A stretch of DNA of 64,000 nucleotides from Selenomonadaceae bacterium (GCA_017444295.1 JAFSWY010000172.1:7548-71547), one strand, 5' to 3'. Positions 1-17,526 are shown, counted from the first letter of the stretch. Notes: generated by a model not told the origin, from the letters alone. Made by a program: numbers and translations.

Positions 1-1305
1 CGCCTTGGGGCAATCATGGATGATAAGGCCCTCCTTCTTGTAAGGCTCGGAAGGGGGGGCGGGTGGTGTGGGCGTAGGCGTATTTGTTGGGTCATTGCTG
101 GCATCGTAGATGCCAAGCGCAGGAGAACTATCCTTGGTGAAATAATAGGTTCCGTTGCCATCTGTGTCAATGCCCACATTATGGGAAGTATCCACGGAAA
201 CAAGTGTCCCGCTGGTGTATGTATAGTAATGGCTTCCGCCGGTATTGTTTGCCTGAGCGCTCTTGATTCCGTCGTACAATGCCTTCGCCAAATCGGATAC
301 ATTGGCAACATCAGCTATGCCGATGGTATATGCCTTTGCCTGGGGATTCGTTGTTGATGGATTGTTGTCATAAGTGGAAGCAGAGTTAGCTAGGCTGGCA
401 TCAAAGCGGAAATTCAGGAACTGATAACATGCACCGCAGAGAATAGAGAATCCCTGTTGGTTGAAATCCCCTACGGTGGGTGTGGAGCCATCTGTGGTAC
501 GCACTGCACCAGAAAAGTCAATCTTGACCTTCGTGCCGCCAGAGTAGGATTGCTGGGCAGTAGCATTGATAGGGCCGCCCCTGAACATCTGCCCCCCGGA
601 ACTTGTGCCTGTCATGGCAGAGAAGTTGGAGGCCAAATTTCTCACCGAAGTATTTTGCACCAAGCCGCTGGCGGTAGTGGCCGGTCCCGAGGCAGCCGTG
701 CTTGCCGCACTTGCAGCCGCCCAGTTCGCCCGATTGCTGGGCCGATAAACCCACACATCCTCAATGGGCAATTGGGTGGTGGTCATGCCATTGTAGAGTG
801 GCACAGTAAGCGACCCGTTGCTGTCCTTGTCCATGGGAAGCTGCACCGGGTCGGTGTACTTCATGGCATCCGGGGACTCATAGCGGCCGTCCAGAAGAAT
901 CTTCCCGTTGTAGCTGGTCTCCGAGGCGATGTCCTGGATGAGATCCATCCGCTTGTCGTATTCCTTTTGAAGGGTTGCCCGATCCGAGTCCGTGTTGTGG
1001 TCGTTCATGGCATTCAGGCACATTTCCTTCATGGAGCGAAGGTTGTTGATGATGGACTGGATGCCTCCCTCCGCCACGGCCACAAGGCTGTTCCCCGTCT
1101 GGACGTTTCGGATGTTCTGGTTCAGGGAACGAATCTGCACCCGCATCTTCTCGGAGATGGAGTACCCGCTGGCATTGTCCCCGGAGCTGTTGAAGTCCAT
1201 CCCCGTGGACACCTTTTTCAGCGACTTGGATAGGTTGCTGTTGTTCTGGTTCAAGGTGTTCAGGGCACTGTTCGCCGCAAGGTTGTTCCTCACCTTCATT
1301 GACAT
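1..1305 (-). CDS. fliC: Flagellin paralog 1, N-terminal 435 codons. The ORF runs off the left window edge, so it is absent from the ORF track.
   Basis: Manual translation from ATG at 1305 gives MSMKVRNNLAANSALNTLNQNNSNLSKSLKKVSTGM...SGYSISEKMRVQIRSLNQNIRNVQTG, a canonical flagellin D0/D1 N-terminus. It is collinear with the 1635-3344 flagellin, including the QQGFSILCGACYQF block. The frame stays open to position 1. Confidence 0.9.
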   Translation of the reverse strand, partial: MSMKVRNNLAANSALNTLNQNNSNLSKSLKKVSTGMDFNSSGDNASGYSISEKMRVQIRSLNQNIRNVQTGNSLVAVAEGGIQSIINNLRSMKEMCLNAMNDHNTDSDRATLQKEYDKRMDLIQDIASETSYNGKILLDGRYESPDAMKYTDPVQLPMDKDSNGSLTVPLYNGMTTTQLPIEDVWVYRPSNRANWAAASAASTAASGPATTASGLVQNTSVRNLASNFSAMTGTSSGGQMFRGGPINATAQQSYSGGTKVKIDFSGAVRTTDGSTPTVGDFNQQGFSILCGACYQFLNFRFDASLANSASTYDNNPSTTNPQAKAYTIGIADVANVSDLAKALYDGIKSAQANNTGGSHYYTYTSGTLVSVDTSHNVGIDTDGNGTYYFTKDSSPALGIYDASNDPTNTPTPTPPAPPSEPYKKEGLIIHDCPKA

Positions 1306-1634: not shown

Positions 1635-3344
1635 CTATTGCAACAAGTCCAGCACGCCGCCCACGTTCTGGTTGGCCTGGGACAGCATGGACTGTGCCGT
1701 CTGGGAAAGGACGTTGTTCTTCGTATAGGTCATCATTTCCTTTGCCATGTCCGCATCCTGCATGGTGGACTCCGCGCTCTGGGTGTTCTCCTGGTCTATC
1801 ACCAGATTGTCCTCGGTGAAGCCGAGGCGGGAACGGTAGGCTCCCATGCGGGTGGCCTCGTTCAGGCTGTACTCAATGGCAAAATTCACATAACCGAGGG
1901 AAAGCGCCGCCAACTCCCTCGGGGTTGTGGCCGTCCCCTCGATTTTCAGTGCCCGTGGGTGCATGCTGTTGATGTAGACAGGGAGGTACTGGTTCTGCTT
2001 GGGGCCGTGATGGATGATGAGGGGATTGCCCGGCTCGTCTTCCTCATCAGATGCCGCCTCCGGCTCCGGATCCGGTGGCAGAGCCCAAGGGGGCGTATTC
2101 TTGTCATAAGTGCCATCATCATTGATACCAAGAATAGGCGACGAATCTTTTGAAATATAGTACTTCCCCGTGGGGTTGCCCTGAGAATCTGTTTCTTTTA
2201 CAAGATTCACATTGTGTCGTTCATCGATGGATACCACTGTTGCCGAATCGGAACGCAATGTGTTTGGTCTGGAACCATTGGCTGTGGCATAATTCGTATG
2301 GCTTGCAGCAATTCCGTCAAAAAGCGCAGCTTCCAAGTCCGATTCGTTTGTAACACCTTGTATCCCGATGGTGTATTCCCTTGCCTGTGAGTTCTTAGTG
2401 GAATATGCGGGGTTGTATGTGGATGCAGAAGTTGCCAAATTGGCATCAAAACGAATATTGATGAATTGATAGCATGCACCGCAAAGAATGGAAAATCCCT
2501 GCTGGTCAAAGTCCGAAGGATAACTGGCTGCCGTACCGTTCACGTTAGCGGCAGAAAAATCCACATATACTCCGATGCCCCCGGAATAGGACGTTTTCGC
2601 CTCGATTCCCACCGCAGTATGGGCAAACCCGGGACCGGCGGTTGTGTAGTTCCTCCCCGAAAAATTTGTTGCCAAATCCGATATGGTGTTCTGTATTATG
2701 GATCCACTCGTACCGGATGTACCAGCAGTACTGGATGCACTTGAGGTAGATGTGGTATATACACTTCCCGCAGGATTCGCTGTCTTGTATTTCCACACCG
2801 ATGTCACCGGGTCATTGGTGTATTCCACATTGTACACCGGCAACAGGTTCCCGTACTTGTCCTCTTCCAAGGGCAGTTCCACCGGGGCCTCGTAGCGCAT
2901 GGACTTGGGAGAATAATACTGGCCGTTCAGCAGCCTTCGCCCGTTGTAGTCCGTTTCCGCCGCAATGTCCGTGATGGTTTCCATGCGCTTGGAATATTCC
3001 TTGTTCAAGGTGTCCCTGTCCTGATCCGAGTTATGATCGTTCATGGAGTTCAGGAGCATTTCCTTCATGGTGCGGAGATTGTCCAGCACCGACTGGATGC
3101 CGCCCTCCGCCACGGCAATGAGGTTGTTCCCCGTCTTGACGTTCTGCACGTCCTGCCCCAGGGCGCGAACCATGACCTCCATTTTCTTCCCGATGGCATA
3201 GCCCGAAGAATCATCTCCCGCCCCGGTAATCCTCATGCCGGAGGACACCTTCTTGAGGGATTTCGCCAGCGCGCTGTTGTTCGCGTTCAACGTGTTCAGT
3301 GTATTATTCGCCGAAAGATTGTTCTTTACCACCATGGGCATCAT
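1635..3344 (-). CDS. fliC: Flagellin paralog 2 (569 aa) with a large variable central domain
   Basis: N-terminus MMPMVVKNNLSANNTLNTLNANNSALAKSLKKVSSGMRITGAGDDSSGYAIGKKM. C-terminus ...MAKEMMTYTKNNVLSQTAQSMLSQANQNVGGVLDLLQ. Both are canonical flagellin N and C domains. Confidence 0.97.
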   Translation of the reverse strand: MMPMVVKNNLSANNTLNTLNANNSALAKSLKKVSSGMRITGAGDDSSGYAIGKKMEVMVRALGQDVQNVKTGNNLIAVAEGGIQSVLDNLRTMKEMLLNSMNDHNSDQDRDTLNKEYSKRMETITDIAAETDYNGRRLLNGQYYSPKSMRYEAPVELPLEEDKYGNLLPVYNVEYTNDPVTSVWKYKTANPAGSVYTTSTSSASSTAGTSGTSGSIIQNTISDLATNFSGRNYTTAGPGFAHTAVGIEAKTSYSGGIGVYVDFSAANVNGTAASYPSDFDQQGFSILCGACYQFINIRFDANLATSASTYNPAYSTKNSQAREYTIGIQGVTNESDLEAALFDGIAASHTNYATANGSRPNTLRSDSATVVSIDERHNVNLVKETDSQGNPTGKYYISKDSSPILGINDDGTYDKNTPPWALPPDPEPEAASDEEDEPGNPLIIHHGPKQNQYLPVYINSMHPRALKIEGTATTPRELAALSLGYVNFAIEYSLNEATRMGAYRSRLGFTEDNLVIDQENTQSAESTMQDADMAKEMMTYTKNNVLSQTAQSMLSQANQNVGGVLDLLQ

Positions 3345-3413: not shown

Positions 3414-3441
3414 ATATCGTCATTTTCATAAAAAACCTTAA
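3414..3441 (-). promoter_or_regulatory. Sigma28-type promoter for flagellin paralog 2
   Basis: Minus strand: TTAA, 18 nt, CGATAT, about 70 nt upstream of the ATG at 3344. Confidence 0.55.
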
Positions 3442-3560: not shown

Positions 3561-3589
3561 TTGCCAAGGGTCAGAATCCATGATATAAT
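3561..3589 (+). promoter_or_regulatory. Near-consensus sigma70 promoter of orphan RNA gene 1
   Basis: TTGCCA (3561-3566), 17 nt, TATAAT (3584-3589). It is preceded by an A/T-rich UP-like tract, aaaaaaacggcaataaaaataattt. Confidence 0.65.
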
Positions 3590-3595
3590 ACAAGC

Positions 3596-3924
3596 AAATA
3601 GAGGGAAACGACCAGCGAGCCGCCCGCAGGGCCTTGGAGGGCAGGCGGCAGCGGTAGCCGAAACAGGCTTCCCTCTGGTGTAGGCGAAAGGGCGGATGTC
3701 TATTGATGCTTGACGGACAGGGAACCCCTTCGGACTGACTGATGAGTGCCACCTGTGAAGCGAGAGGATGTCCATCGAGGCAGGGGCGCGGAAACGTGCC
3801 TGAGGCTATATGGAATCGTCATTTGCACCGTCATCAGGAGGAAAGAACAGAGACACGAGGTTTTCACGAATGCCAATCTACGGGTAGACCGGCTTGCAGC
3901 GGTGTTGCAAGCCGGTTTTATTTT
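3596..3924 (+). ncRNA. Candidate structured small RNA, about 330 nt, family unknown
   Basis: Bounded by the promoter above and a strong terminator. No ORF with a ribosome-binding site. Complementary segments: 3600-3607/3669-3676 (8 bp) and 3710-3719/3769-3778 (9 of 10 bp). Eleven GGA triplets, including two GGATGTC. Confidence 0.5.
3889..3924 (+). terminator. Intrinsic terminator of RNA gene 1. It probably also stops the convergent glycosyltransferase operon.
   Basis: CCGGCTTGCA-gcggtg-TTGCAAGCCGG hairpin followed by TTTTATTTT. It lies 7 nt from the stop codon at 3931 of the minus-strand gene. Confidence 0.8.
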
Positions 3925-3930
3925 GCCCCG

Positions 3931-5130
3931 TTATTCCCCGGCATCCCTCCGCACCCTTGGCTCCTTCCGCATCAGCTCGTCGATGGCCGCGATGACCTGC
4001 CGGGGGGAGATGCGCTTGGAGCATTCCAGCTCCCGTTCCGTCCCGTTGTGGTAGGGGCAGATTTTCGACTGGAAGCGGGTCCGTATGTCATTGAAGCATC
4101 CATGGCACACATGGCGGTTGAGAATCCGGTAAGGCGTGTAGAACTCGCACCATGGCTGCGACATGCCGCTGATGAGGATCACCGGGCACCCCACGGCATG
4201 GGCCAGCCAGGAAAGGCCACTGCCAAGGCCGATGAAGAAATCCGCATAGTAGAGCATGTTTGCCCTGTCCATGATGCTGCGGTCCCCCGTCATGTCCTCC
4301 GCGCTGTCCGGCATCAGTGTCTCATAGTTCAGCTCCCGCTGGTAGGCGTGGCGGTCAATGCAGATGACCCGGTACCCCAGAGCGTTCAAATAGTCGGAAA
4401 CGATATCCCATCCACGGGGATAATGCCATCCCTTCGACAAGGTGGAGGCCTGCACGGCAATGCAGACATATTTCCCCTTCACGACACGGGGCCGCGTGGG
4501 ATGGAACGGGGGCAGGGGCGCAGGCCCGTGAACCCCCACGATTTCCCCTGCCATCTCATCCATGGGAAATGTCCGGGTATCGATGGGCGCTCCCATCTTG
4601 GTGTCAAACCATGCCGCCAGATAAAAAATGGCATAGGTATCCTCGGGCGCCTTCTCCCCCAATTGCGGAATCCCCGGATACAAATGCTCCGCAAGCTCCC
4701 TCAGATACTCCCCCTCCAGCTTATAATAAACCTCGCAGTGATACTTTTCCTTGAAGGCCTGGGCATAGGGAAGGGCAGCCAACGTGTCCCCCATGGCTCC
4801 CCAGACACTGTAGAACACCACCGTCTGCCCTTCGGGATCGAAGACATGGGAAAACACCGGCTCGCCATCCTTTTTCACATCGACGGCCCACCGGACAAAA
4901 TACTTTTCCATGGAAATGAGCAGAATGTCCGACACATCCTCATCCAGGAACATGTCCTCCGTATCATGGTCATATATCGATACATGCCAGTTCCCTTCCG
5001 GAACCTGCAAGCGAAGCCCTTGCCGAAAATCCAGCCTCAGGCCCGGAATCCCCGTCTCGCCCTGTACCGGCCCGGCAAATGGTTCCCATTCCTTGAACAG
5101 GCTCATTTGTGACAGCCAACGCTTATCCAT
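3931..5130 (-). CDS. GT9-fold heptosyltransferase-like protein resembling the TibC/Aah (BAHT) autotransporter O-heptosyltransferases
   Basis: GT9-like block FFIGLGSGLSWLAHAVGCPVILISG. C-terminal four-Cys cluster HVCHGCFNDIRTRFQSKICPYHNGTERELEC. The start was moved to ATG 5130 (GGAGG 8 nt upstream); the track start at 5199 is a GTG. Confidence 0.6.
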   Translation of the reverse strand: MDKRWLSQMSLFKEWEPFAGPVQGETGIPGLRLDFRQGLRLQVPEGNWHVSIYDHDTEDMFLDEDVSDILLISMEKYFVRWAVDVKKDGEPVFSHVFDPEGQTVVFYSVWGAMGDTLAALPYAQAFKEKYHCEVYYKLEGEYLRELAEHLYPGIPQLGEKAPEDTYAIFYLAAWFDTKMGAPIDTRTFPMDEMAGEIVGVHGPAPLPPFHPTRPRVVKGKYVCIAVQASTLSKGWHYPRGWDIVSDYLNALGYRVICIDRHAYQRELNYETLMPDSAEDMTGDRSIMDRANMLYYADFFIGLGSGLSWLAHAVGCPVILISGMSQPWCEFYTPYRILNRHVCHGCFNDIRTRFQSKICPYHNGTERELECSKRISPRQVIAAIDELMRKEPRVRRDAGE

Positions 5131-5205
5131 AGGCATGTCCTCCGGGTTCCTGCAAGTGAAGTAGCGAATCTCTCCCACGAAACCTCCCCCTCTTCCCACG
5201 CCGGT

Positions 5206-5865
5206 TCAGGAATCCTCGTATTCCCTGACCCGGAGCGTGAGATTCCTCTCCTCGCAAATCTTTCGGCAACGGGCGATTTCCTCGGCATCCTCCACCCTGT
5301 CCACAACGGTCAGAACCACATGCGGCACATATTTCTTGCAGTGCTCCGCAAAGGTGAGCATTCCCTCGTAGGATGCAATGCCGTGCTTCGCCCGTGTGAG
5401 TTCCAGGTAGCGCTCCGCGTTAGAGGCGTTGAGGCTGATGGAGACGGTGTCCAGCACGCCCTCGTAGTCCGCGGCGATTTCCCGCCCGTATTCCAGCTCG
5501 CCGAGTCCGTTGGTGTTGAGCCGTGTCGCCATGCCCGGATGCCGTTCCTTCACATAGTGCAGAAGAGCTGCCAGAACATCCTGCCGCTGGGTTGGCTCGC
5601 CGAAGCCGCAGAACACGACCTCCTTGATGTATTCCCAGGGCACGCTGTCCAGCTCTCTTTCGATTTCCTCAAGGGACGGCTCCTTTTTCAGCCAGAGGGA
5701 GGATTCCTCCGCCATCTTCTTCATGTTGCGCAGGCAGAACACACAGGAACAGTTGCAGCGGTTCGTGATGTTGACGTAGAGGTTCCGCTTGCCCTCCGGC
5801 TGAATCTTGAGGCTTTCCTCCAAGGGCAGGTACTTTCCTCCCTTGTGTGTCGCATATACAATCAT
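5206..5865 (-). CDS. Small radical SAM enzyme (219 aa)
   Basis: CxxxCxxC motif within NITNRCNCSCVFC. GGE-like FCGFGEPT. TNG motif. AAGGAG ribosome-binding site 8 nt before the ATG at 5865. Confidence 0.8.
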   Translation of the reverse strand: MIVYATHKGGKYLPLEESLKIQPEGKRNLYVNITNRCNCSCVFCLRNMKKMAEESSLWLKKEPSLEEIERELDSVPWEYIKEVVFCGFGEPTQRQDVLAALLHYVKERHPGMATRLNTNGLGELEYGREIAADYEGVLDTVSISLNASNAERYLELTRAKHGIASYEGMLTFAEHCKKYVPHVVLTVVDRVEDAEEIARCRKICEERNLTLRVREYEDS

Positions 5866-6020: not shown

Positions 6021-8591
6021 CTAATTCAGCAGGGCAAACCATTCCATCTGGTGCCAGAGGAGGTCGTTTGCCGCAAGAGGTGCGCCCGTTCGTTCGCAAA
6101 GCGGTTCCCCGATGATCCCCACAGCCCCGTCCCCGGCCCGGGCGAGCTGCTGCAAAAGATGCGCCCACATCACATAGGGCAGGGGCTTCCCGTCGAGGAA
6201 ACAGGGCCGCAGCCACCGGCATTCCTCCATCAGGGAACGGCACACCAATGCTCCGTTCATGCTTCCGGAAGGATATTTCCCCCTGCAAAGGAGTTCCTGC
6301 CAAAGGGATTCCGGGGAAACCATCCCGAAGACGGGATCCACCCGGACATCCGTGTACGGATCTGTCGGGGCAAATTCCCTCCTGCCGTCCGCAAACAGTA
6401 TCCCAAAGGAGAAATCCTGGGATTCCGTGCAGGCGACCATTTTCATAAGCTTGTCCTCCTGCATGGAATATCCTGGCAGCAGCCACTGCACATATTCCCC
6501 CGTTGCCTCCCGGGAAAGCTGCCGGAAAACATCCTCTCCGGACATATCGTCCAGGAAGCGGATGCCCTCCCGCAAACCTTCCGGCAGCTGCGCCTGTTCC
6601 GTCGATGCCCCAATACCACAGACAAAAATCTCCTTGAAGGGATATGTCTGGGTCATGGCAAGACCCAAATTCCTGCATAACTCCTCATCGTCACCCAAAT
6701 AAGGGATGGCAACCGTGACCCGCTTCCCCTGCCGCAAGACCTTTTCCTCAAGGTATGCCTCCGCAATGAGCACGCTTGCCCCCATGAGATTGCGCAGGAC
6801 ATCGGGCCGCACGTCCCCGCTGTAGCGCAGGGGGATTTCCTCGCAATAGGGCTTGAGGTCGAAGTCCATCGGCTCCTCGATGGCAGAGCCGGGCGAAACG
6901 GTCTCCCCCTTGCCCAGCTTCTCGTAGCAGGTCTTGAGATAGGAGGCCGTCGGCGTGTAAACGGAATACTTCGCCACGTTGTTGATCCAGCTCGTCGCCA
7001 CCTTTGCGGCATACTGCTCATCGCTGCGCCAATGGTAATGGGCCAGGTGCAGATCCGGCACAACGGTCCAGGGAACCTTCTCTCCCGTGGCCTCCCAGCA
7101 GGCATAATGGCAACCCTGCATGAGACGGAAGCCCGGTCGAAGCGCAATCTCCCCTCCCACAGCCAGCTTCTGCCCGGGGGCGAAGTCCCTGCTGCGCCTG
7201 CAGGGACGGGAGAGCAGGAACCTTCCTTCCTCCTCGTGCTGGCGAAGGGGCTCGTAGAGCCGCCATTCCAGCTTGTGCAATTCCTCCGGGGAAAGTCCCT
7301 CCAATACCTCCCTGCAGGATTTTTCGCTGTCGGTATTGACCAGAAACTCGTCTGCGTCCAGGGGCAGGACGAGGTCGGCATGATGCTCCCTCACGGCCTC
7401 CCGCAAAAGCTCGTTCATAACCTCTGCATGGGCAAGCTCCACAGGCCGGAGCATCCGAACGAAAACAGGCAGTCCCTCTGCCTGAAGATTTTCGAGAATC
7501 TCTCCCGTCTTGTCCGCGCTGCTGTGGTTGGCAATGATGATCTCGTCGGCAAAGGCCAGGCTATGGCGGACAAAGCTCTCGATGATGTCTGCCTCATTCT
7601 TCACCATGGAGACAACGACAATTTTCCGCCCGTTTTTTTCTCTTTCCTGCAAACAAACCGCTTCCCTTCCATCAAGAATGGCACGGATTCCATCCATGCA
7701 CTGCGCATAGGCGTCCCATGCGCCGCACTCCAGAAATTCCGGCATTCGGTACGGTTTCACCCGATCATACTCATCCCGCAAAAGGGCCAGAAGATGCGCA
7801 TAGTCCTCCCGGGTTTCCAGGAACACGCGCCTCCTGTAATACTCCGTGCCCAGTCGGAACCATTCCATCCTGCTTTGCAGGATCACGTCCTTCTGCTGCC
7901 CTTCCTGCTCCCCATGGCGGCGGTAGTAGCTCAAGGAATCGCGGAAAACCGCGCATTTCCCCTTTTCCAGCAGTTCCAGCCACATGGCAACATCCGAGAT
8001 CGTCCTGTAGCCTTTCGCCTCCGCACGCCAGTAATGATGTTGCAGGTCCCGCCTGCGAAAGAGCACTGCAGAAGGCTCGCCGATGTAGTTCCGCATGTCC
8101 CGCAGCATGCGCCGCCCAAGTTCTGCACCGTCGAACACCTGGCAGGTCTCTCCGTTTTCCAGCCCCAGAAAGGAAAGCTTCCCGACCTTGCTTCCCTCCC
8201 CGTCCATCACACCCCGCTGTGAGGTCACAAGCGTTATCCCCGGGTCCCGCTCAAAACATTCCACCATGAGCCGGAGCTTTTCCGGTTCCAGCACATCGTC
8301 ATCCATGAGCCATTGCAGATACTCGCCATGGGCCAAATCCTCAAAAGGCATGAAATTTTCTTCCTTGGTCATTGCCCTTCGGTTTCTCACGTACCGCACA
8401 CGGGAATCCCCGGCATATCCCTGCATCAGCTGCGCGGTCGCCTCGTCGCGGCTGTTGTCGCAGACGATGATCTCGACTTTGGGATAGGTCTGGGCCAGGG
8501 CGCTCCGCAAAGTCTTCTCAAACAACTTCGGGCGCTCATAGGTCGGTATCATAATGCTGACAAGCCCTTGTACGGTCTCCGCTGTAGACAT
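6021..8591 (-). CDS. Three-module glycosyltransferase (856 aa): N-terminal GT2, central GT2-like module, C-terminal GT2-like module
   Basis: N-terminal module: VSIMIPTYERPKLFEKTLRSALAQTYPKVEIIVCDNSRDE. Central module: KIVVVSMVKNEADIIESFVRHSLAFADEIIIANHSS. C-terminal module: VTVAIPYLGDDEELCRNLGLAMTQTYPFKEIFVCG. Confidence 0.8.
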   Translation of the reverse strand: MSTAETVQGLVSIMIPTYERPKLFEKTLRSALAQTYPKVEIIVCDNSRDEATAQLMQGYAGDSRVRYVRNRRAMTKEENFMPFEDLAHGEYLQWLMDDDVLEPEKLRLMVECFERDPGITLVTSQRGVMDGEGSKVGKLSFLGLENGETCQVFDGAELGRRMLRDMRNYIGEPSAVLFRRRDLQHHYWRAEAKGYRTISDVAMWLELLEKGKCAVFRDSLSYYRRHGEQEGQQKDVILQSRMEWFRLGTEYYRRRVFLETREDYAHLLALLRDEYDRVKPYRMPEFLECGAWDAYAQCMDGIRAILDGREAVCLQEREKNGRKIVVVSMVKNEADIIESFVRHSLAFADEIIIANHSSADKTGEILENLQAEGLPVFVRMLRPVELAHAEVMNELLREAVREHHADLVLPLDADEFLVNTDSEKSCREVLEGLSPEELHKLEWRLYEPLRQHEEEGRFLLSRPCRRSRDFAPGQKLAVGGEIALRPGFRLMQGCHYACWEATGEKVPWTVVPDLHLAHYHWRSDEQYAAKVATSWINNVAKYSVYTPTASYLKTCYEKLGKGETVSPGSAIEEPMDFDLKPYCEEIPLRYSGDVRPDVLRNLMGASVLIAEAYLEEKVLRQGKRVTVAIPYLGDDEELCRNLGLAMTQTYPFKEIFVCGIGASTEQAQLPEGLREGIRFLDDMSGEDVFRQLSREATGEYVQWLLPGYSMQEDKLMKMVACTESQDFSFGILFADGRREFAPTDPYTDVRVDPVFGMVSPESLWQELLCRGKYPSGSMNGALVCRSLMEECRWLRPCFLDGKPLPYVMWAHLLQQLARAGDGAVGIIGEPLCERTGAPLAANDLLWHQMEWFALLN

Positions 8592-8634
8592 GTTTTCCCC
8601 GCTTTCTCCGAAATCATGCCAGTGATTTGATTTC

Positions 8635-9483
8635 TCATTTCAGCTGCGTAAGGTACTCCTCAAAAGGCAGGCCATAATTCCAGGGCAAGTCCAGCTTCAC
8701 CGCATGGCGGAGAACCTTGCTGATGAAGATTGCCGCCTTCTGGACGGCCTGGCTCAAGGTCTCCCCGTTCACAAGGCTGGCGGCAACGATGGCGGCAAAG
8801 GCATCCCCCGAGCCGGAACGGTCGTCGCCCACCCGCTTCACCCGCAGAACCTCAGTGCCACGGTCACGTTCATAGATGAAATTCTCTACGAAGTCCTCCT
8901 CATGCAGCCCCGTGATGACCACCTGGCGCGGGCCGCGATTGGAAAGTTCCTCCGCCATCCGCCGAAGTTCCCCGTCATCCACGATGCCCCCTTCGGGGTA
9001 AGGGATATCGAGAAGCCAACAAGCCTCCGTCAGGTTCGGCGTCACGAGATCCGCATGAACGAGAAGTTTCCGCATCTCCGCGCACATCTCCGGCGTATAG
9101 GAAGAATAGAGCCTGCCATAGTCCCCCATGACAGGGTCCACCATGACTTTCGTGTTCTCCTTCTTGAAATGGGCGATGAAATCCTCCACGATCCCGATCT
9201 GCTCCACGGAGCCGAGAAATCCCGTGCAGATGCCGTCGAACTCCAGCCCGTTCTCCTTCCAGTTCTCCATGTAGGGGCGCATGCGCTCCGTATAGTCGTC
9301 GATATAATGGGATTCAAACCCCGTATGCACCGACAGGATTGCTGTCGGGAAAGGACATGCCTGTATCTTCATTGCCGAAATAAGAGGCAGCTCCACGGTC
9401 ATGGAGCAACGCCCAAAGCCCGTAATGTCATTGATGAGCGCGATGCGCTTTTGTCGTTTCACTTTCGGATCCCACCTAAACAT
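8635..9483 (-). CDS. pdxK: Pyridoxal/pyridoxamine kinase (ribokinase superfamily)
   Basis: IALINDITGFGRCS...FDGICTGFLGS...DPVMGD...GSGDAF motifs. ATG at 9483; the track start at 9486 is a TTG. Confidence 0.85.
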   Translation of the reverse strand: MFRWDPKVKRQKRIALINDITGFGRCSMTVELPLISAMKIQACPFPTAILSVHTGFESHYIDDYTERMRPYMENWKENGLEFDGICTGFLGSVEQIGIVEDFIAHFKKENTKVMVDPVMGDYGRLYSSYTPEMCAEMRKLLVHADLVTPNLTEACWLLDIPYPEGGIVDDGELRRMAEELSNRGPRQVVITGLHEEDFVENFIYERDRGTEVLRVKRVGDDRSGSGDAFAAIVAASLVNGETLSQAVQKAAIFISKVLRHAVKLDLPWNYGLPFEEYLTQLK

Positions 9484-9532
9484 CAAGATTTTCTCTATGT
9501 ATCATTATACCACAAATCAAGAGATTCCATAA

Positions 9533-9566
9533 GCAAAAGCCTTCCCATCCAAGGAAGGCTTTTGCT
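9533..9566 (-). terminator. Hairpin after queF
   Basis: GCAAAAGCCTTCC/GGAAGGCTTTTGC 13-bp stem immediately downstream of the queF stop at 9570. The trailing U-run is weak. Confidence 0.45.
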
Positions 9567-9569
9567 TCG

Positions 9570-10064
9570 TTATCGATTATCCACTTTGTCCATTCCCGCC
9601 ATGTCATGGCCCGCAAAGCGCTCCCAGGCAAGCTTTTCATATTTCGTGCCGGGCCTGCCGTAGTTGGCATAGGGGTCAATGGAAATGCCTCCGCGGGGAA
9701 GGAATTTCCCCCAGACCTCAATGTAACGAGGCTCCATGAGCCTGATGAGATCCTTCATGATGATGTTCACCACATCCTCGTGGAAATCGCCATGGTTCCG
9801 GAAACTCACAAGATAGAGCTTCAGTGACTTGCTCTCCACCATTTTCCTGTCCGGCACATAGGAAATATAGATGGTTGCAAAATCCGGCTGCCCTGTGATG
9901 GGGCAGAGGGTCGTGAATTCCGGGCAGTTGAATTTCACCCAGTAATCATTGTCCGGATGCTTGTTCTCAAAGGTTTCCAGCAGTTCCGGCGAATAATCAT
10001 AGCCATAGGCAACATTCTTCTGCCCCAGCAGGGTAATGTTCTCCCTGTCCCTTTCCCGTGCCAT
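9570..10064 (-). CDS. queF: NADPH-dependent 7-cyano-7-deazaguanine reductase
   Basis: [27 protein letters not shown] is the QueF type I signature, with the catalytic Cys in the CP(I)TGQPD context. Confidence 0.93.
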
Positions 10065-10067
10065 GGC

Positions 10068-11771
10068 TCACTCCCCTGCCTTCCCGTCGAGGAACTTCTC
10101 CTCAAAGTTCTCGACGGATTCCGGGCGCCCGAACAGGTAGCCCTGAATGGTGTCCGCATTGCATTCCTGCCGCAGGAGCTTGTACACCTCTTCTTCCTCC
10201 ACGCCTTCGATGCAGGTGCGGATCCCGATGCTGTGGCAGAGCTCCACCGTATATTTTACCAGGCGGCGGTCAAAATCATTCTCCAGGATATTCTTCACAA
10301 ATTCCCTGTCAATCTTCACAATATCACAGGAAAGGTTCTTGAGTGTCGCCAGAGAGGAATATCCCGTGCCGAAATCATCCATGGCAATAGAAATGCCCTT
10401 CTTGCGGAAGTGGTCGAACTCGCGGTTGACGAAATTCCAGTCCGCGATGATCTTGCTTTCCGTAAGCTCCAGCACCAATGCCTCCGGCGGCACATCGTAG
10501 CGGTCAATGCACTCGTTCACGAAATCCTTGAAGCTTGCATCCTTGACCTGCTCATAGCTCAAATTCACACTGACCCTGAAATTCGGCACGATTCTTCGCC
10601 ATTTCTTGCATACGCGCAGGGCTTCCTCCACAATCCAGCGTCCCACGGGAATGATGAGCCTCGTCTCCTCCAGGATTGGGATGAATTCCATGGGCGCAAC
10701 CATGCGCCCCTTGGGGCTCTTCCAGCGAAGCAGCGCTTCCGCCCCGATGAGGCACTGGTCCTCCGCCGACACCTGGGGCTGAAAGAAAAGGCTGAATCCC
10801 GTGCATCCATTCTCCACGCTTTCCCTGAGATTGTCCCGCATGGAAATCGATCGTACCCAGCGGTTATACTCTTCCTTGCTGAAAATGCAGTTGCGGTTCT
10901 TTCCGTCCCGCTTCGCGATATCCATTGCCGCCTCAGCATATTTATGGAGAACCAGATAATCCTTTCCGTTGGCCGGATAAAAGACGGTCCCGCCTGAAAC
11001 CGTGCAGAAATAGGTATGCCCATCCAGGATCTGGGGCTGTGCCAGGCTGCGCTGGATCCCTGTAAAAATATCCTGCACATCCCCCTCACCGGCTCCCGGA
11101 TAAATAATGGCAAACACATCTCCGTCCAGCTTGTAGAGGGTCAGCATGGGAGGCAGGATACTTTCAACCGTGCGGGCGACATGGCGGAGCACCTGGTCGC
11201 CCACCAGCCGGTTATAGGTTTCATTGACAATCTTGAAATTGTCCAGACCGAAAAGGATGACAGCACCGCCTTCCTCTGTGGCGCGGTAGCCTGCCAATGC
11301 CATCTTTACGCCATGCTCGAACTGGTACTTGTTGAGGAGCCCCGTGACCTCGTCTGCCTGGTTCCTCTGTGCCATGCGCGTCATCATGCCTGTGAACACG
11401 ACAGGAACGCCTTCCTTGTCCAACCCGACACGGCCGCGGCAGCGTATCCAGACATACTCGCCCTTCCTGTTCTTTACACGATACTCCAGGAAATGCTCAT
11501 ATACATTCCGGCTTTTCATGATGGCCCGCATGGAAGCCATATATGGCCCCCGCTCCTCCGGATGAATCATCGGATCCCAATACTGGTCAAAATCATAGAG
11601 CACCTCCCCCGGCAGATTGAAATCCTGCACAAGGTTCGGCGATACCATGACCGTGTTTGTCTGCATATCTGCACAAAAGAGATATGCATCCGTCGTCCGC
11701 TTCATGAGATCAAAGAAAAACTTGTATCTCTTCAGCAGCGGGCTCAGGGAAGCCCGATTGTTCTTTTGCAT
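10068..11771 (-). CDS. PAS, degenerate GGDEF and EAL protein; likely a c-di-GMP phosphodiesterase
   Basis: The GGDEF site is replaced by DGDVF and YGH by YNR. EAL motifs are intact: EALLRW, DDFGTGYSSL, KIDREF, EGVE, QGYLFG. Confidence 0.85.
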   Translation of the reverse strand: MQKNNRASLSPLLKRYKFFFDLMKRTTDAYLFCADMQTNTVMVSPNLVQDFNLPGEVLYDFDQYWDPMIHPEERGPYMASMRAIMKSRNVYEHFLEYRVKNRKGEYVWIRCRGRVGLDKEGVPVVFTGMMTRMAQRNQADEVTGLLNKYQFEHGVKMALAGYRATEEGGAVILFGLDNFKIVNETYNRLVGDQVLRHVARTVESILPPMLTLYKLDGDVFAIIYPGAGEGDVQDIFTGIQRSLAQPQILDGHTYFCTVSGGTVFYPANGKDYLVLHKYAEAAMDIAKRDGKNRNCIFSKEEYNRWVRSISMRDNLRESVENGCTGFSLFFQPQVSAEDQCLIGAEALLRWKSPKGRMVAPMEFIPILEETRLIIPVGRWIVEEALRVCKKWRRIVPNFRVSVNLSYEQVKDASFKDFVNECIDRYDVPPEALVLELTESKIIADWNFVNREFDHFRKKGISIAMDDFGTGYSSLATLKNLSCDIVKIDREFVKNILENDFDRRLVKYTVELCHSIGIRTCIEGVEEEEVYKLLRQECNADTIQGYLFGRPESVENFEEKFLDGKAGE

Positions 11772-12865: not shown

Positions 12866-14770
12866 TTACTCTTTCTTGGCTACGGCGTAGTTCCTGAGGC
12901 GCGGCTTGATGAGGGAGTGCTCGAATTCGCGATAGTTGACGATCGGCTCCTCCGTCTTCTCGTCAAAAGTGACCACCGTCGTGCGCATGAACTTCTCGTC
13001 ATCGCGGCCAAAGAACAGCAGGTCGTCATTGCCATCATCGGTCATGGCACGACCGGTTTGGGCATCGAAATGATACTTGCCGCTCTTCTCGTCAAAGGCC
13101 TGCTTCTTTGCTGCATCCCAGGAATCGTAGTCGGATTTCAGGACGATCTTGGCATGAGCGCCACGGCTTTCATCACGCTGCAAGGCAGACTTGGTGATAG
13201 CCATTGCATAGACGATCATGTTGCGGAGCTGGCGGACGAACATCGCCTCCTGGTTTGCCCAGCTGCCATGATCCGTAACACCGATGCTGTCCCAACGCTT
13301 CAAAAGGGCATGGAGCTCTTTCATGCACTGGCTGAGGCCGTTGTTGTCACGCTCCACGGAAACGTACTTGTACATAATGTCGCCGAGCTCATGATGGAGC
13401 TGGTGGGCATTTTCCGAACCGTTCATGTTGCGGATCTTGTCGAATTCCTCCACGCATTCCTTGCGGGCTGCTTCCATCTCTTCCTGGGTGAGCGCCACGC
13501 CATTCTCGCCTGCACGGGCATAGCGCAGGGCCTCCGGGCCGGAAATCGTGCCGGAATAAGCAGCGGAGAGCAGGGAGTTCGCGCCCAGACGGTTTGCGCC
13601 ATGGTACTGGTAATCGCACTCGCCGGAAGCCATGAGGCCCGGAATGTTCGTGTGATGCGCGCGATCCACCCAGATGCCGCCCATGGAATAATGGATGGAG
13701 GGGAAGATCTCCATGGGAACCTCAGCGGGGCTCTTGCCCACGAAGTCCTCGTACATCTCCAGGATGCCGCCCAGTTTGCGCTCCAGGTAGTCCGCCGGGA
13801 TATGGGAGAGATCGAGATAGACGCGGTTCGGGTTCTGCATGCCGAGGCCCATATGGACAACGACCTTGTAGATGGCACGGGAAGCAACGTCACGGGGAAC
13901 GAGGTTGCCATAGGCAGGATACATATCCTCAAGGAAGTACCAGCGCTCCTTCTCGCCCGTCTGGGGATTGTTGCGCCATACCCAGACGCGCCCGCCCTCA
14001 CCACGGCAAGCCTCGGACATCAGGCGGTTCTTGTCGGAACCCGGGATGGCCGTCGGATGGATCTGCAGGAACTCGGGGTTGCCGATCTCAGCGCCCTGCT
14101 GGTACACAGCGGAAACAGCGGAACCGTTGCAGATGGTGGAAGCCGTGCAACGACCGTAGACCTGGCCGGGGCCGCCCGTGGCAAGAATGACCACATCGGC
14201 AGGGAATGCCGTAATCTCATTGGAATTCATGTTCTGGGCAACAATGCCGCGGACAACGCCGTCCTTGTTCTTGATGGCCTTGATGAATTCCCAGAACTCG
14301 TACTTCTTGACCTTGCCCTTGACCTCCCAGCGACGGACCTGCTCGTCCAGCGCATAGAGGAGCTGCTGGCCCGTGGTGGAGCCTGCGAAGCAGGTGCGCT
14401 TGTTCTTCTGTCCGCCGAAGTTGCGGAGATCCAGAGTGCCTTCTGCCGTACGGGTAAAGGGAACACCCATGCGGTCAAACATCTTGATGAGTTTCGGCGC
14501 AGCCTCGACCATGCCCTTGACAGCCAGCTGGTCAGCGAGGAAGTCGCCGCCGTATACCGTGTCATCGAAATGCTCGTAGACGCTGTCATGCTCGCCCTTG
14601 GTGTCCATGCAGGCATTGATGCCGCCCTGGGCACAGAGGGAATGGGAACGCTTCACGGGGCAGTAAGAGAAGAGGTCTACCACACCGCCGTCCTCACAGA
14701 TCTTCAACGTAGCCATGAGGCCCGAAAGGCCGCCGCCTACGACAATAATCCTTTTTTCTGCTTTAGCCAT
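12866..14770 (-). CDS. sdhA: Succinate dehydrogenase/fumarate reductase flavoprotein subunit
   Basis: FAD fold IIVVGGGLSGL. SHSLCAQGGINA. HYSMGGIWVD. ESRGAHAK. Confidence 0.96.
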   Translation of the reverse strand: MAKAEKRIIVVGGGLSGLMATLKICEDGGVVDLFSYCPVKRSHSLCAQGGINACMDTKGEHDSVYEHFDDTVYGGDFLADQLAVKGMVEAAPKLIKMFDRMGVPFTRTAEGTLDLRNFGGQKNKRTCFAGSTTGQQLLYALDEQVRRWEVKGKVKKYEFWEFIKAIKNKDGVVRGIVAQNMNSNEITAFPADVVILATGGPGQVYGRCTASTICNGSAVSAVYQQGAEIGNPEFLQIHPTAIPGSDKNRLMSEACRGEGGRVWVWRNNPQTGEKERWYFLEDMYPAYGNLVPRDVASRAIYKVVVHMGLGMQNPNRVYLDLSHIPADYLERKLGGILEMYEDFVGKSPAEVPMEIFPSIHYSMGGIWVDRAHHTNIPGLMASGECDYQYHGANRLGANSLLSAAYSGTISGPEALRYARAGENGVALTQEEMEAARKECVEEFDKIRNMNGSENAHQLHHELGDIMYKYVSVERDNNGLSQCMKELHALLKRWDSIGVTDHGSWANQEAMFVRQLRNMIVYAMAITKSALQRDESRGAHAKIVLKSDYDSWDAAKKQAFDEKSGKYHFDAQTGRAMTDDGNDDLLFFGRDDEKFMRTTVVTFDEKTEEPIVNYREFEHSLIKPRLRNYAVAKKE

Positions 14771-14810
14771 TTAAATTCTCCTTTTCTAGCAAAGTTCTGT
14801 CCGGCCTTCA

Positions 14811-15437
14811 TCACATGACGAAATAGCTGCCCATGAATGCAAGCGTCACAAGGCAAAGAAGAGCGCAGAGCCCCATGCTCAAAGCACTTATGACGTTCTG
14901 GGAGCGCGGGCCCTTGGTGATGCCCCAGGTCATGCAGAACGTGGTGATACCATTGCAGAAATGGAAAATCGCAGCGAACATGCCGAGAACATAGAGAACC
15001 GCAACAATGGGATTGCTCGTGAAATAAGCCTGCAACAGTTCATAGGAGATCGGCGTTCCATTGATGCCCTTCGTGAAGATGCGAAGGTAGAAAATATGCC
15101 AGATAAGGAAAATCACGAGGAACCATGCCGTCCAGCGCTGAAGCGCAAAGAACCAGTTTCTCTGATAACCGAAGCGGCCTGGATTGTTGTTTGCCTGCAA
15201 TGCGATGTAGACACCATAGATTGCATGGAAAAGCAACGGAACTGCAATGGCACCGATTTCAAGGCCCATGAAGATCGGTTTCGGAATAAGCTCCATCATG
15301 GCAAGAGAACTGTTCAGCGCTGCCGGGCCCCCCATAGCCATGGAGTTCGTGAAGATGTGCTCAAAGAGCACGGCGCCCAAGCATACAAGACCACAGAGCG
15401 AATGCAAGCGGCGCACATAAAAAGTTGTGTTATACAT
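14811..15437 (-). CDS. sdhC: Succinate dehydrogenase/fumarate reductase cytochrome b subunit (five-TM, Bacillus sdhC type)
   Basis: Hydrophobic 208-aa protein directly upstream of sdhA-sdhB, giving the C-A-B gene order. Confidence 0.8.
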   Translation of the reverse strand: MYNTTFYVRRLHSLCGLVCLGAVLFEHIFTNSMAMGGPAALNSSLAMMELIPKPIFMGLEIGAIAVPLLFHAIYGVYIALQANNNPGRFGYQRNWFFALQRWTAWFLVIFLIWHIFYLRIFTKGINGTPISYELLQAYFTSNPIVAVLYVLGMFAAIFHFCNGITTFCMTWGITKGPRSQNVISALSMGLCALLCLVTLAFMGSYFVM

Positions 15438-15466
15438 TCTGAACCTCCTAAAAATCCATTAATTTA

Positions 15467-16033
15467 TCAATAGCCTTTCAGCGTACGATACTTCTCCTGG
15501 TTCGTCTCGTAAAGGCTGTTGCCTTCGCAGTCGATGACGACAATTGCCGGAAAGTCCTCCACCGTGAGACGGGCCACGGCCTCAGGGCCAAGCTCCGGAT
15601 AGGCGAGCACCTCATACTTCTTGACGGACTTCGCGATCAGGGCAGCAGCGCCGCCAACCGCAGCAAAATAAGTCACGCCGTTCTTCTTCATGGAGTCAAT
15701 GACTTCCTTGGAACGGGAGCCCTTTCCGATCATGCCCGTGATGCCCTGCTCCAGCATCGTCGGCGTGTAGGCATCCATGCGTCCCGAGGTCGTGGGACCG
15801 CAGGAGCCGATGGGATCGCCAGGCTTCGCCGGCGTCGGGCCGAGATAGTACACCACCTGGTTGTTCCAGTCCACAGGAAGCTTCTCGCCACGGGCAAGGG
15901 CCTCTGTCATGGCCTTGTGGGCGGCATCGCGGGCCGAGATGACCTCTCCCGTGATGAGCACGGCGTCGCCTGCACGGAGTTTCTTGGACATCTCCTTGGT
16001 AAAGGGAGTTTGAATACGAATCTGTTCAGCCAT
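15467..16033 (-). CDS. Class I (Fe-S) fumarate hydratase, beta subunit
   Basis: GDAVLITGEVISARDAAHK...YYLGPTPAKPG...GRMD...GKGSR, the Fe-S hydro-lyase beta type. Confidence 0.9.
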   Translation of the reverse strand: MAEQIRIQTPFTKEMSKKLRAGDAVLITGEVISARDAAHKAMTEALARGEKLPVDWNNQVVYYLGPTPAKPGDPIGSCGPTTSGRMDAYTPTMLEQGITGMIGKGSRSKEVIDSMKKNGVTYFAAVGGAAALIAKSVKKYEVLAYPELGPEAVARLTVEDFPAIVVIDCEGNSLYETNQEKYRTLKGY

Positions 16034-16057
16034 TATTGCATCCTCCTATCTCTCGTC

Positions 16058-16900
16058 TCACAGCTCACGGTGTGCATGGCGCATTGCATGGCAGCAAATC
16101 GTGACCGCCACGGGAAGGCCCGCAATATGCGTGGGACCCCACTCGATGTTGACGGCCAATGCCGAGGTCGTGCCGCCGAGCTGCGGGCCGATGCCCGTCT
16201 GGTTGATGAGTTCAAGGAGCTCCTCCTCCAACTTTGCGTACTCCGGCATGGGATTGCGCTGGTCAATGGAGCGGGTGAGTGCCTTCTTCGACATGAGAGC
16301 CGCCCGATCCATCGTTCCACCGATACCGATGCCGACCACCATGGGAGGGCAGGGATTCATGCTGGCATGGAGGATGATCTCCATGACGGCCTTCTTGACG
16401 CCTTCCACACCATCGGCAGGAACAAGCATCTTGATGCCGGACTTGTTCTCCGAACCAAACCCCTTCGGTGCAATCGTGATATCCAGTTTGTCCCCCGGCA
16501 CGATTTCCGTGTAGATGACACCCGGCGTATTGTCCTGGGTGTTCTTGCGGTTGAAGAGCGGCTCAGCCACCACGGATTTCCGAAGGTAGCCCTCCGTATA
16601 GCCCTTGGCGATACCGGCATTCACTGCATCCTCCAGATTGCCACCCGTGATATGGAGATCCTGCCCTATCTTCAGGAACACGATGGTCATGCCCGTGTCC
16701 TGGCAATAGGGGCGGTCCTCCGCCCTGGCAATCTCCGCATTGCGGATGATCTGGTCAAGCACCACCTGGCCCACCGGGGACTTCTCCGTCTCACGGCCGC
16801 GCTTGAGGCCGTTGTAGACATCCTCCGGCAGATAGTAGGCCGCTTCCTTGCACATCTCGGCCACATTCTCCGTGATGGTCTTTACGTCGAGTTCTCGCAA
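16058..16900 (-). CDS. Class I (Fe-S) fumarate hydratase, alpha subunit
   Basis: PYCQDTGMTIVFLKIG...MNPCPPMVVGIGIGGT...VTICCHA, the Fe-S hydro-lyase alpha type. Confidence 0.9.
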   Translation of the reverse strand: MRELDVKTITENVAEMCKEAAYYLPEDVYNGLKRGRETEKSPVGQVVLDQIIRNAEIARAEDRPYCQDTGMTIVFLKIGQDLHITGGNLEDAVNAGIAKGYTEGYLRKSVVAEPLFNRKNTQDNTPGVIYTEIVPGDKLDITIAPKGFGSENKSGIKMLVPADGVEGVKKAVMEIILHASMNPCPPMVVGIGIGGTMDRAALMSKKALTRSIDQRNPMPEYAKLEEELLELINQTGIGPQLGGTTSALAVNIEWGPTHIAGLPVAVTICCHAMRHAHREL

Positions 16901-16983
16901 AGTAATCCCTCCCTAAAATATAACAGCATAAATTCTGGCATACTCCATATCTTTTCTATTAGACATCGAAAAAGAAACTCCTG

Positions 16984-17005
16984 CTAAATTTCCAAAGAAA
17001 TTTAG
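16984..17005. promoter_or_regulatory. AT-rich perfect palindrome upstream of the fumarate hydratase-sdh operon (candidate operator)
   Basis: CTAAATTTC-caaa-GAAATTTAG, a 9-bp arm inverted repeat, about 85-105 nt upstream of the start at 16900. Confidence 0.3.
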
Positions 17006-17037
17006 GAAATTTATTTCGACCATAAATATGAAGTCTG

Positions 17038-17526
17038 TCAGCCTTGCTCCCCCATACGGTAAACCTTGATTTCAGGCGGTTTTCCCGGCAGAAGCTCTGC
17101 CGTCATGAAGGACGGGCGCATCTCATCCCTGGGTCGGGATGCGCTGCCGGGATTCAAGACGCAGATCCTGCCCTTCTCGCAGTACACGCGATGCGTATGT
17201 CCGTAGACGGCAATGTCACATCCCGCCTCCTTGGCAGCCTCCAGCAAAATACCCGTTCCATGGTTCACATCATAGGTATGTCCATGGGCGAGAAAGATCT
17301 TGTGGCCTGCAGCCTCGACCACCGTCTCGTTGGGAACATCCGTCCTCGGCCAGTCCCCATTGCCCGCTACCTTCACCACGCCGGTATCCGACAGCTTCTC
17401 CAGATACCTTGCATCATCGACGAAATCCCCCGCATGAAGCCAGAGCTCCACTTCGGGTGCCACCTCCAGAACGGCCTCCACCGCCCCCATATTGCCATGG
17501 GTATCACTTACGATTCCTATTTTCAT
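17038..17526 (-). CDS. YfcE/MJ0936-family metallophosphoesterase (YsnB-like)
   Basis: SDTHGN...HAGD...GNGD...HGH...GHTH motif series. Confidence 0.9.
   Translation of the reverse strand: MKIGIVSDTHGNMGAVEAVLEVAPEVELWLHAGDFVDDARYLEKLSDTGVVKVAGNGDWPRTDVPNETVVEAAGHKIFLAHGHTYDVNHGTGILLEAAKEAGCDIAVYGHTHRVYCEKGRICVLNPGSASRPRDEMRPSFMTAELLPGKPPEIKVYRMGEQG

Follow-up and report, generated by a model that had tools for sequence, protein, structure and literature searches.

A TibC/Aah-type protein O-heptosyltransferase homolog encoded beside flagellin genes in a Selenomonadaceae bacterium

TibC from enterotoxigenic Escherichia coli (ETEC) H10407 and Aah from diffusely adherent E. coli (DAEC) 2787 are reportedly bacterial autotransporter heptosyltransferases (BAHTs), and the only role known so far for BAHTs is, to our knowledge, the maturation of virulence autotransporters of proteobacteria, such as AIDA-I, TibA and BimA. 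A gene for a homolog of these enzymes is located next to two flagellin genes in a 64,000-nucleotide stretch of Selenomonadaceae bacterium DNA (GCA_017444295.1 JAFSWY010000172.1:7548-71547), hereinafter the window, which raises the question of what protein, if any, such an enzyme modifies in this setting. Judging by profile, residues and fold, the window enzyme is almost certainly a bona fide BAHT. Judged purely by gene neighbourhood, its most likely acceptors are the two downstream flagellins, a proposition to which we give about an even chance.

The heptosyltransferase gene and its product

The gene and the predicted functional elements of its product are the following.

3931..5130, minus strand: BAHT (TibC/Aah-type) GT9 protein O-heptosyltransferase homolog, 399 amino acids (aa); the open reading frame (ORF) is open up to GTG 5199
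4864..5046, minus strand: N-terminal flattened beta-barrel domain (TibC_1st, PF21129, E 2e-14), ORF residues 52-112; strands at residues 32-108 in the AlphaFold2 model
4786..4788, minus strand: codon of the predicted catalytic base Asp, ORF D138, aligned with TibC Asp110
4165..4230, minus strand: GT9 C-lobe donor-binding loop GLGSGLSWLAHAVGCPVILISG, ORF residues 324-345, which holds the Trp equivalent to TibC W305 (heptose O4 contact) and a Gly at the stereoselectivity position (TibC Pro300, Aah Ser294)
4021..4107, minus strand: Cys4 'iron-finger' motif CxxC-x12-C-x11-C, ORF residues C365, C368, C381 and C393

ORF residue numbers count from GTG 5199; D138 in this numbering is D115 when counted from ATG 5130. 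The latter codon, with GGAGG 8 nt upstream, is most likely the start of the gene and gives the 399-aa product. Although an antisense ORF (3742-5112) is longer, we rejected it as a real gene given that its G+C content at third codon positions (GC3) is only 0.57, compared to 0.73, a value like that of the neighbouring genes, for the frame 3931-5199 on the minus strand, which is the true one. The coordinates 3931-5130 proposed in the initial annotation thus stand, and both the GT9 C-terminal motif and the four-cysteine spacing described there were recovered exactly, at 4165-4230 and 4021-4107, respectively.

Among the NCBIfam models, TIGR04414 ('autotransporter strand-loop-strand O-heptosyltransferase', an equivalog) matches the window protein with 357.1 bits (cut-off 200) over model positions 7-373 of 374, whereas models of lipopolysaccharide (LPS) heptosyltransferases score only 18 bits; a match to the BAHT subfamily profile, which the initial annotation had named as a test, is therefore present. 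In Pfam, PF21129 (TibC_1st) reaches 53.8 bits (cut-off 27) and PF01075 (GT9) 23.2 bits, barely over its cut-off of 22. A HMMER search aligned TibC (PDB 4rap) with residues 49-412 of the window protein (E 5e-70, approximately 35-40% identity over the full length), and the only related solved structures that it retrieved are the two of TibC, 4RAP and 4RB4. In this alignment, C365, C368, C381 and C393 pair one-to-one with Cys339, 342, 358 and 370, the ferric-ion ligands of TibC (PMC4358343), and a MAFFT alignment of 114 Selenomonadaceae homologs has each of the four in 112 or more sequences. The cysteines of the putative iron finger are therefore not a chance pattern, and the initially noticed likeness to the iron-binding cluster of TibC and Aah becomes a residue-by-residue correspondence. 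Asp110, the catalytic base of TibC, and three of the four residues that bind ADP-heptose, Lys230, Arg286 and Trp305 (PMC4358343), are identical in the window enzyme, the Asp being present at this position in 111 of the 114 homologs; the fourth, Thr226, is replaced by Ser, the majority residue among the Selenomonadaceae homologs.

The AlphaFold2 model of the window protein, built on 20 homologs (pLDDT 85.6, pTM 0.86), consists of the barrel followed by two Rossmann-like lobes. Foldseek superimposes it on TibC 4rap/4rb4 over approximately 385 residues with E 3e-34, TM 0.84-0.88 and a root-mean-square deviation of 2.6-2.8 A; the next-best folds are those of the GT9 proteins 3TOV, WaaF and WaaC, with TM of about 0.5 or lower. 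The beta-barrel, a thumb-length insertion and the iron finger are all retained. There are also differences from the characterised enzymes: the middle spacer of the iron finger is 12 residues long, compared to 15 in TibC, the thumb-tip residues F265/V266 of TibC are replaced by N/Y, and the position that sets the preference for D,D- versus L,D-heptose, Pro300 in TibC and Ser294 in Aah (PMC4358343), is occupied by Gly. By homology, the window enzyme is expected to bind iron, to oligomerize, possibly as a dodecamer like TibC, and to be active as a heptosyltransferase, with ADP-heptose as the putative donor.

The 77 genome loci that the family alignment retrieved all belong to Selenomonadaceae (Selenomonas, Quinella, Schwartzia and Mitsuokella), public annotation already labels Selenomonadaceae homologs with the TIGR04414 name, and a protein library clustered at 50% identity contains 555 family representatives at E<1e-30. 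The host of the window is a Negativicute, not a proteobacterium like the hosts of TibC and Aah: a diderm Firmicute with LPS, rather than a Gram-positive bacterium without an outer membrane. Orthologs of the conserved genes that surround the locus carry the names Selenomonas or Mitsuokella. The window DNA occurs in sheep and goat gut metagenomes; the sequencing runs matched were DNA metagenomes from these sources only, with no RNA-seq support among them.

Flagellins as candidate acceptors

The window gene is flanked not by an AIDA-repeat autotransporter gene, as in the case of TibC and Aah, but by genes for flagellins and a three-module glycosyltransferase (GT2x3). No autotransporter with AIDA-type acceptor repeats is encoded beside it, the neighbours being the flagellins, a non-coding RNA (ncRNA), a radical SAM protein and GT2x3, and no AIDA, autotransporter or RTX domain was detected in the subset of window ORFs scanned with Pfam. 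Two flagellin genes a few hundred bp away had been reported initially, and they are indeed there, with 586 bp between the BAHT stop codon and the first flagellin start:

1635..3344, minus strand: flagellin A, 569 aa, candidate acceptor; PF00669 (Flagellin_N) and PF00700 (Flagellin_C); sigma28-like promoter motif at 3414-3441
1..1305, minus strand: flagellin B, candidate acceptor, running off the window; truncated paralog, 54% identical to flagellin A, with a variable domain of the same type; promoter motif at 1504-1530

In the AlphaFold2 model of flagellin A, residues 159-214 form a disordered stretch rich in Ser and Thr, and the variable domain is of the alpha/beta type, with a CxxC motif. 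Cysteines are unusual in flagellins; here, a Cys-x-x-Cys (ILCGxC) is nearly invariant in the variable domain of both BAHT-adjacent flagellins.

The connection between the enzyme and flagellin extends beyond the window. When 114 homologs are placed in a maximum-likelihood tree with TibC as the root, the window BAHT groups with those of loci L080, L001 and L078 (support 87), L079/L002 form the sister group (support 100), and the six-tip clade as a whole has an SH-aLRT support of 100. A flagellin gene lies directly downstream of the BAHT gene, across the ncRNA gene, in four contigs, namely the window, L081, L080 and L001, the BAHTs of the latter three being 97% (a contig fragment), 69% and 66% identical to that of the window; L081 repeats the order TibC-flaA-flaB. 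Of the five contigs of the window clade that could be evaluated, four have a flagellin gene linked to the BAHT gene, and three further lineages have linked flagellin or filament genes; family-wide, flagellin linkage is seen in only 5 of 161 loci. In L165-L169, the BAHT and flagellin genes are both absent from the site. Contexts related to the flagellar filament appear in at least four separate lineages of the tree (parsimony count 4). In L017, the genes flaG-fliD-fliS-flagellin and three GT2/TPR genes are convergent with the BAHT gene; in L022, two GT2/TPR genes, a GT41-TPR gene, a methyltransferase gene and the BAHT gene come after the gene that follows fliS in L017; and in L059 (Schwartzia succinivorans DSM 10502) the order is flagellin-DUF3298-BAHT-FkbM methyltransferase. 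Between the window and L001/L080, the BAHT (66-69% identity) and flagellin (approximately 44% overall) diverge much faster than the conserved neighbours queF (85-90%), kinase (82-84%) and radical SAM (83-84%).

As a positive control for adjacency, the genes of two distant homologs (L156 and L154, 37-38% identity, high GC) directly precede genes for AIDA-repeat proteins with up to 12 repeats, so that adjacency to the substrate gene appears, from gene order, to be a habit of the family. The L156 pair (6775-11583; 38% identity, on a metagenome contig of GC 0.68) consists of a BAHT and, directly after it, a protein of 1,602 aa that combines 12 AIDA repeats with a Hint_2 domain; Pfam detected no autotransporter barrel in it.

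Several observations weigh against flagellin as the acceptor. The BAHT gene is not co-transcribed with the flagellin genes, from which it is separated by the convergent ncRNA gene and its terminator, and the sigma28-like motif TTAA-N15-19-CGATAT precedes only the three flagellin genes of the window, not the BAHT gene. The alpha/beta variable domain differs from the beta-helix of the TibA/AIDA-I passenger; we considered a beta-helical mimic of the TibA passenger and rejected it, Foldseek having matched the domain to generic flagellins only. Co-occurrence of this type of variable domain with BAHT could not serve as support either: in a collection of 5.8 billion proteins, 11 proteins share the domain, and flagellins that contain it are encoded in L082, L083 and L084 without an adjacent BAHT gene. 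Family-wide, the 5 of 161 loci with a flagellin within the fetched flanks (1.7 Mb) are close to chance expectation, showing no enrichment; one event in a common ancestor may account for all four flagellin-positive contigs of the window clade; and in L078, of the same clade, the BAHT gene is followed by AMP-binding and GNAT genes, with no flagellin. A scan of metagenomes for members of the window clade found none above 55% identity and no flagellin adjacency in 80 loci. Because the host is diderm and has LPS, autotransporters in it are plausible a priori, and autotransporters or RTX adhesins encoded elsewhere in the genome are possible substrates. Finally, the flagellin of Selenomonas sputigena is reportedly heavily O-glycosylated (PMC13339959, PMC10202936), which speaks for flagellin as an acceptor, but the secondary sources consulted describe the glycans as rich in rhamnose and fucose, with no mention of heptose.

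The initial annotation had presented flagellin as a substrate class not described for the family. This still holds for the literature covered by our full-text searches (most subscription papers lay outside their scope), which yielded no account of flagellin modification by a BAHT, of BAHTs in Negativicutes or of heptose as a flagellin-linked sugar.

The window contains a third flagellin gene:

39421-41229, minus strand: third flagellin, 602 aa; Pfam detects the flagellin N and C domains only

Its variable region is different and contains a HExxH motif (AHEMVHAIM), reminiscent of the proteolytic flagellins of the 'flagellinolysin' type.

Tandem paralog arrays and giant proteins

Many of the Selenomonadaceae BAHT paralogs are encoded in tandem arrays of 2-5 genes, for example, in L024 (9836-16494), L031 (4114-9207), L038, L039, L028, L003 and L004. 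In twelve loci, one to five tandem paralogs are located directly downstream of a gene for a Thr/Asp/Gly-rich protein of 2,000-2,900 aa with RTX-like C-terminal repeats (then queD and queE). Downstream of these arrays, there are genes for an aldo-keto-reductase/ferredoxin protein and a flavodoxin. The L004 array, of three genes, is immediately followed by a gene for a 1,014-aa protein with RTX calcium-binding repeats recognized by Pfam (14265-17309), a 974-aa paralog of which is encoded upstream in the same locus. The arrays and the giant proteins are candidate pairs of a BAHT and a giant adhesin outside type V secretion, and substrates other than autotransporters are likely for the BAHT family in Selenomonadaceae generally. 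If so, a flagellin substrate becomes less exotic, but the same observation supplies its main competitor, an RTX-type substrate encoded elsewhere in the genome.

Proposed mechanism and alternative explanations

By homology, the window enzyme would be a soluble, cytoplasmic iron-finger glycosyltransferase whose GT-B domain binds ADP-activated heptose in its cleft, with Asp138 (ORF numbering) as the predicted catalytic base. The acceptor, an exported protein in a folded or partly folded state, would receive heptose on the hydroxyl groups of Ser/Thr residues prior to its export. The likely targets would be the surface-exposed variable domain or the Ser/Thr-rich linker of the flagellins, and GT2x3 might add further sugars. 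No ADP-heptose genes (gmhA, hldE or hldA/hldC, gmhB, hldD) are evident in the window. More broadly, we tentatively propose, as a reading that we consider somewhat short of an even chance, that the BAHTs of Selenomonadaceae have spread from autotransporters to other substrates, the window enzyme O-heptosylating flagellin, which leaves by flagellar type III export, and the tandem paralog arrays hyperglycosylating giant RTX-type surface proteins secreted by the type I route.

It could also be that the adjacency to flagellin is accidental and that the acceptor is a different exported protein, either a giant RTX-like adhesin of type I secretion or a type V autotransporter, with its gene elsewhere in the genome. 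Most of the Selenomonadaceae paralogs are away from flagellin genes, the giant proteins of the twelve loci and the RTX-repeat protein of L004 offer themselves as such acceptors, and the characterised BAHTs act on beta-helical adhesins (PMC4358343); furthermore, the interval from the radical SAM gene to ilvBN is an insertion hot spot that holds GT9, GT41 and LuxC/E genes as well. However, no RTX or autotransporter protein is encoded by the scanned ORFs of the 64-kb window, the window clade is a well-supported branch separate from the clade of arrays and giant proteins, and in every informative case the family gene adjoins its presumed substrate, which for the window clade is flagellin. We consider this explanation rather unlikely. 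A functionless, decaying remnant of an island insertion is extremely improbable: the gene belongs to a variable part of the locus and has changed more rapidly than the genes around it, but its reading frame is uninterrupted, with the usual codon bias (GC3 0.73) and a good ribosome-binding site, the catalytic, donor-binding and metal-binding residues are all kept, and recorded proteins include a full-length match at 99% identity, in addition to the 97% identical contig fragment in the same gene order.

The acceptor might, alternatively, be a sugar rather than a protein, such that the enzyme adds heptose or another ADP-sugar to extend a flagellin O-glycan initiated by a different transferase or to build the LPS core or another glycoconjugate. 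Most GT9 enzymes are glycan-elongating LPS heptosyltransferases, and ordinary GT9 genes are located beside the homologs in L079/L002, L052, L053, L061 and L072. The flagellin glycans of S. sputigena are complex oligosaccharides, and the Gly at the stereoselectivity position sets the window enzyme apart from both TibC and Aah. LPS heptosyltransferases act on Kdo or heptose of the lipid A-core, not on protein; the window enzyme shares with WaaC, WaaF, WaaQ and the Veillonella parvula GT9 protein 3TOV the GT9 C-lobe (PF01075) and a donor site of the ADP-heptose type, whereas these enzymes have neither the beta-barrel nor the iron finger. The apparatus for protein recognition, namely the barrel, the thumb-length insertion and the iron finger, is retained in its entirety in the window enzyme, which, as described above, resembles TibC far more closely than WaaC or WaaF in both fold and profile score. 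A sugar acceptor thus appears distinctly unlikely.

Should the window enzyme modify flagellin, this would be the first case of heptose on flagellin and of a BAHT at work outside type V secretion, and O-heptose would be a new chemistry in flagellin glycosylation. A flagellin or RTX substrate in a gut/rumen Firmicute would mean that the dodecameric iron-finger machine is a general device for cytoplasmic protein hyperglycosylation, with natural enzyme/substrate pairs for studies on acceptor recognition. Should the acceptor be an ordinary adhesin encoded elsewhere in the genome, the finding would be reduced to one more member of a known family, encountered in a new phylum.

Relationship to known flagellin glycosylation systems

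Soluble, cytoplasmic O-glycosyltransferases of flagellin include FlmG (Caulobacter), Maf (Campylobacter/Aeromonas) and the GT2/TPR enzymes of Clostridioides difficile; we know of no characterised flagellin transferase in the BAHT/GT9 family. As in flagellin glycosylation islands, the window has glycosyltransferase genes grouped with flagellin genes and no visible genes for lipid carriers or flippases, and the homologs in L017 and L022 similarly accompany GT2-TPR and GT41-TPR genes beside fliD, fliS and flagellin. Unlike these transferases, the window enzyme lacks a TPR or Maf-type flagellin-binding module.

The ncRNA gene, the conserved backbone and its variable inserts

The gap between the BAHT and flagellin genes contains a separate transcription unit:

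3561..3925, plus strand: structured ncRNA gene, a backbone element; promoter TTGCCA-17-TATAAT at 3561-3589, terminator at 3886-3918

This gene is convergent with the BAHT gene and conserved in L081, L080 and L001; Rfam has no match for the ncRNA or the intergenic region between BAHT and flagellin. Weak nhmmer matches were obtained between the radical SAM gene and p280 (a gap of approximately 760 bp) in island-free genomes of Selenomonas and Mitsuokella, and we accordingly rejected the possibility that the ncRNA is part of a mobile BAHT-ncRNA-flagellin cassette.

On the other side, the BAHT gene is the last of a minus-strand string:

10068-11771, minus strand: PAS-GGDEF-EAL
9570-10064, minus strand: queF
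8635..9486, minus strand: pyridoxamine-kinase-like gene (ribokinase superfamily; NF005491 284.7 bits, cut-off 231), backbone
6021..8591, minus strand: GT2x3, three-module GT-A (GT2) glycosyltransferase, 856 aa (PF00535, PF13704), variable insert
5206..5865, minus strand: 219-aa radical SAM protein of the TatD-associated family (TIGR04038 179.7 bits, cut-off 129.7), backbone

Homologs of the radical SAM protein number 6,734 at E<=1e-20; the best 120 are 71-99% identical, and the named ones among these are annotated as 'TatD family nuclease-associated radical SAM protein' from Selenomonas and Mitsuokella. In three of the genomes that encode such homologs, the order is sdhCAB-(EAL)-queF-kinase-rSAM-(~760 bp)-p280-comF-ilvB-ilvN (rSAM, radical SAM), with no BAHT, GT2x3 or flagellin gene at the site. 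This backbone occurs in Selenomonas spp., S. caprae and Mitsuokella, and in L001 the flagellin gene is followed by p280, comF and ilvB, as in the backbone genomes. From these gene orders, queF, the kinase gene, the radical SAM gene and the ncRNA gene are backbone, and the genes for GT2x3, BAHT and the flagellins make up the variable content of a single insertion hot spot. Because the queF-kinase-rSAM order is kept in genomes without the inserts, the link between the radical SAM gene and BAHT is coincidental, and neither this gene nor the kinase gene is probably related to the glycosylation function; for the same reason, we rejected a functional triad of kinase, radical SAM protein and BAHT, as suggested by L078, L080 and L001. 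The operon described in the initial annotation, in which BAHT was the last gene after those for a radical SAM enzyme and the three-module glycosyltransferase, thus stands as far as the co-directional placement after GT2x3 is concerned, but the radical SAM gene does not belong to a functional unit with BAHT. The BAHT gene has no promoter of its own that is recognisable in the sequence and is probably transcribed by read-through from the backbone string.

GT2x3, encoded 890 bp upstream of the BAHT gene and in the same direction, is a probable partner enzyme. Its homologs populate the GT41/TPR glycosylation islands of Selenomonas; between the kinase and radical SAM genes it is absent in L080 and L165-L169 and represented by module 1 only in L001. 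Other organisms encode proteins in which a BAHT domain is joined to GT2, GT2+TPR, a class-I methyltransferase or DUF5672, or to a second BAHT domain in tandem (924 aa), as in P0139, P0150, P0157, P0167, P0176 and P0197; such architectures are not described in the TibC paper (PMC4358343). The fusions to GT2-type domains suggest that the BAHT domain works with GT-A enzymes such as GT2x3.

The site between the radical SAM gene and ilvBN also holds GT9, GT41, LuxC/E and other inserts. In L078 (1-9300), this hot spot carries, upstream of the kinase gene of the backbone, an inserted 9-kb cluster of AMP-binding, LuxE, LuxC, B12-radical SAM, DUF4910, methyltransferase and SPASM genes. Within the window, 12 kb from the BAHT gene, a GT61-like glycosyltransferase (17531-19228, minus strand; PF04577) with a poly-C tract may also belong to the surface-glycosylation repertoire.

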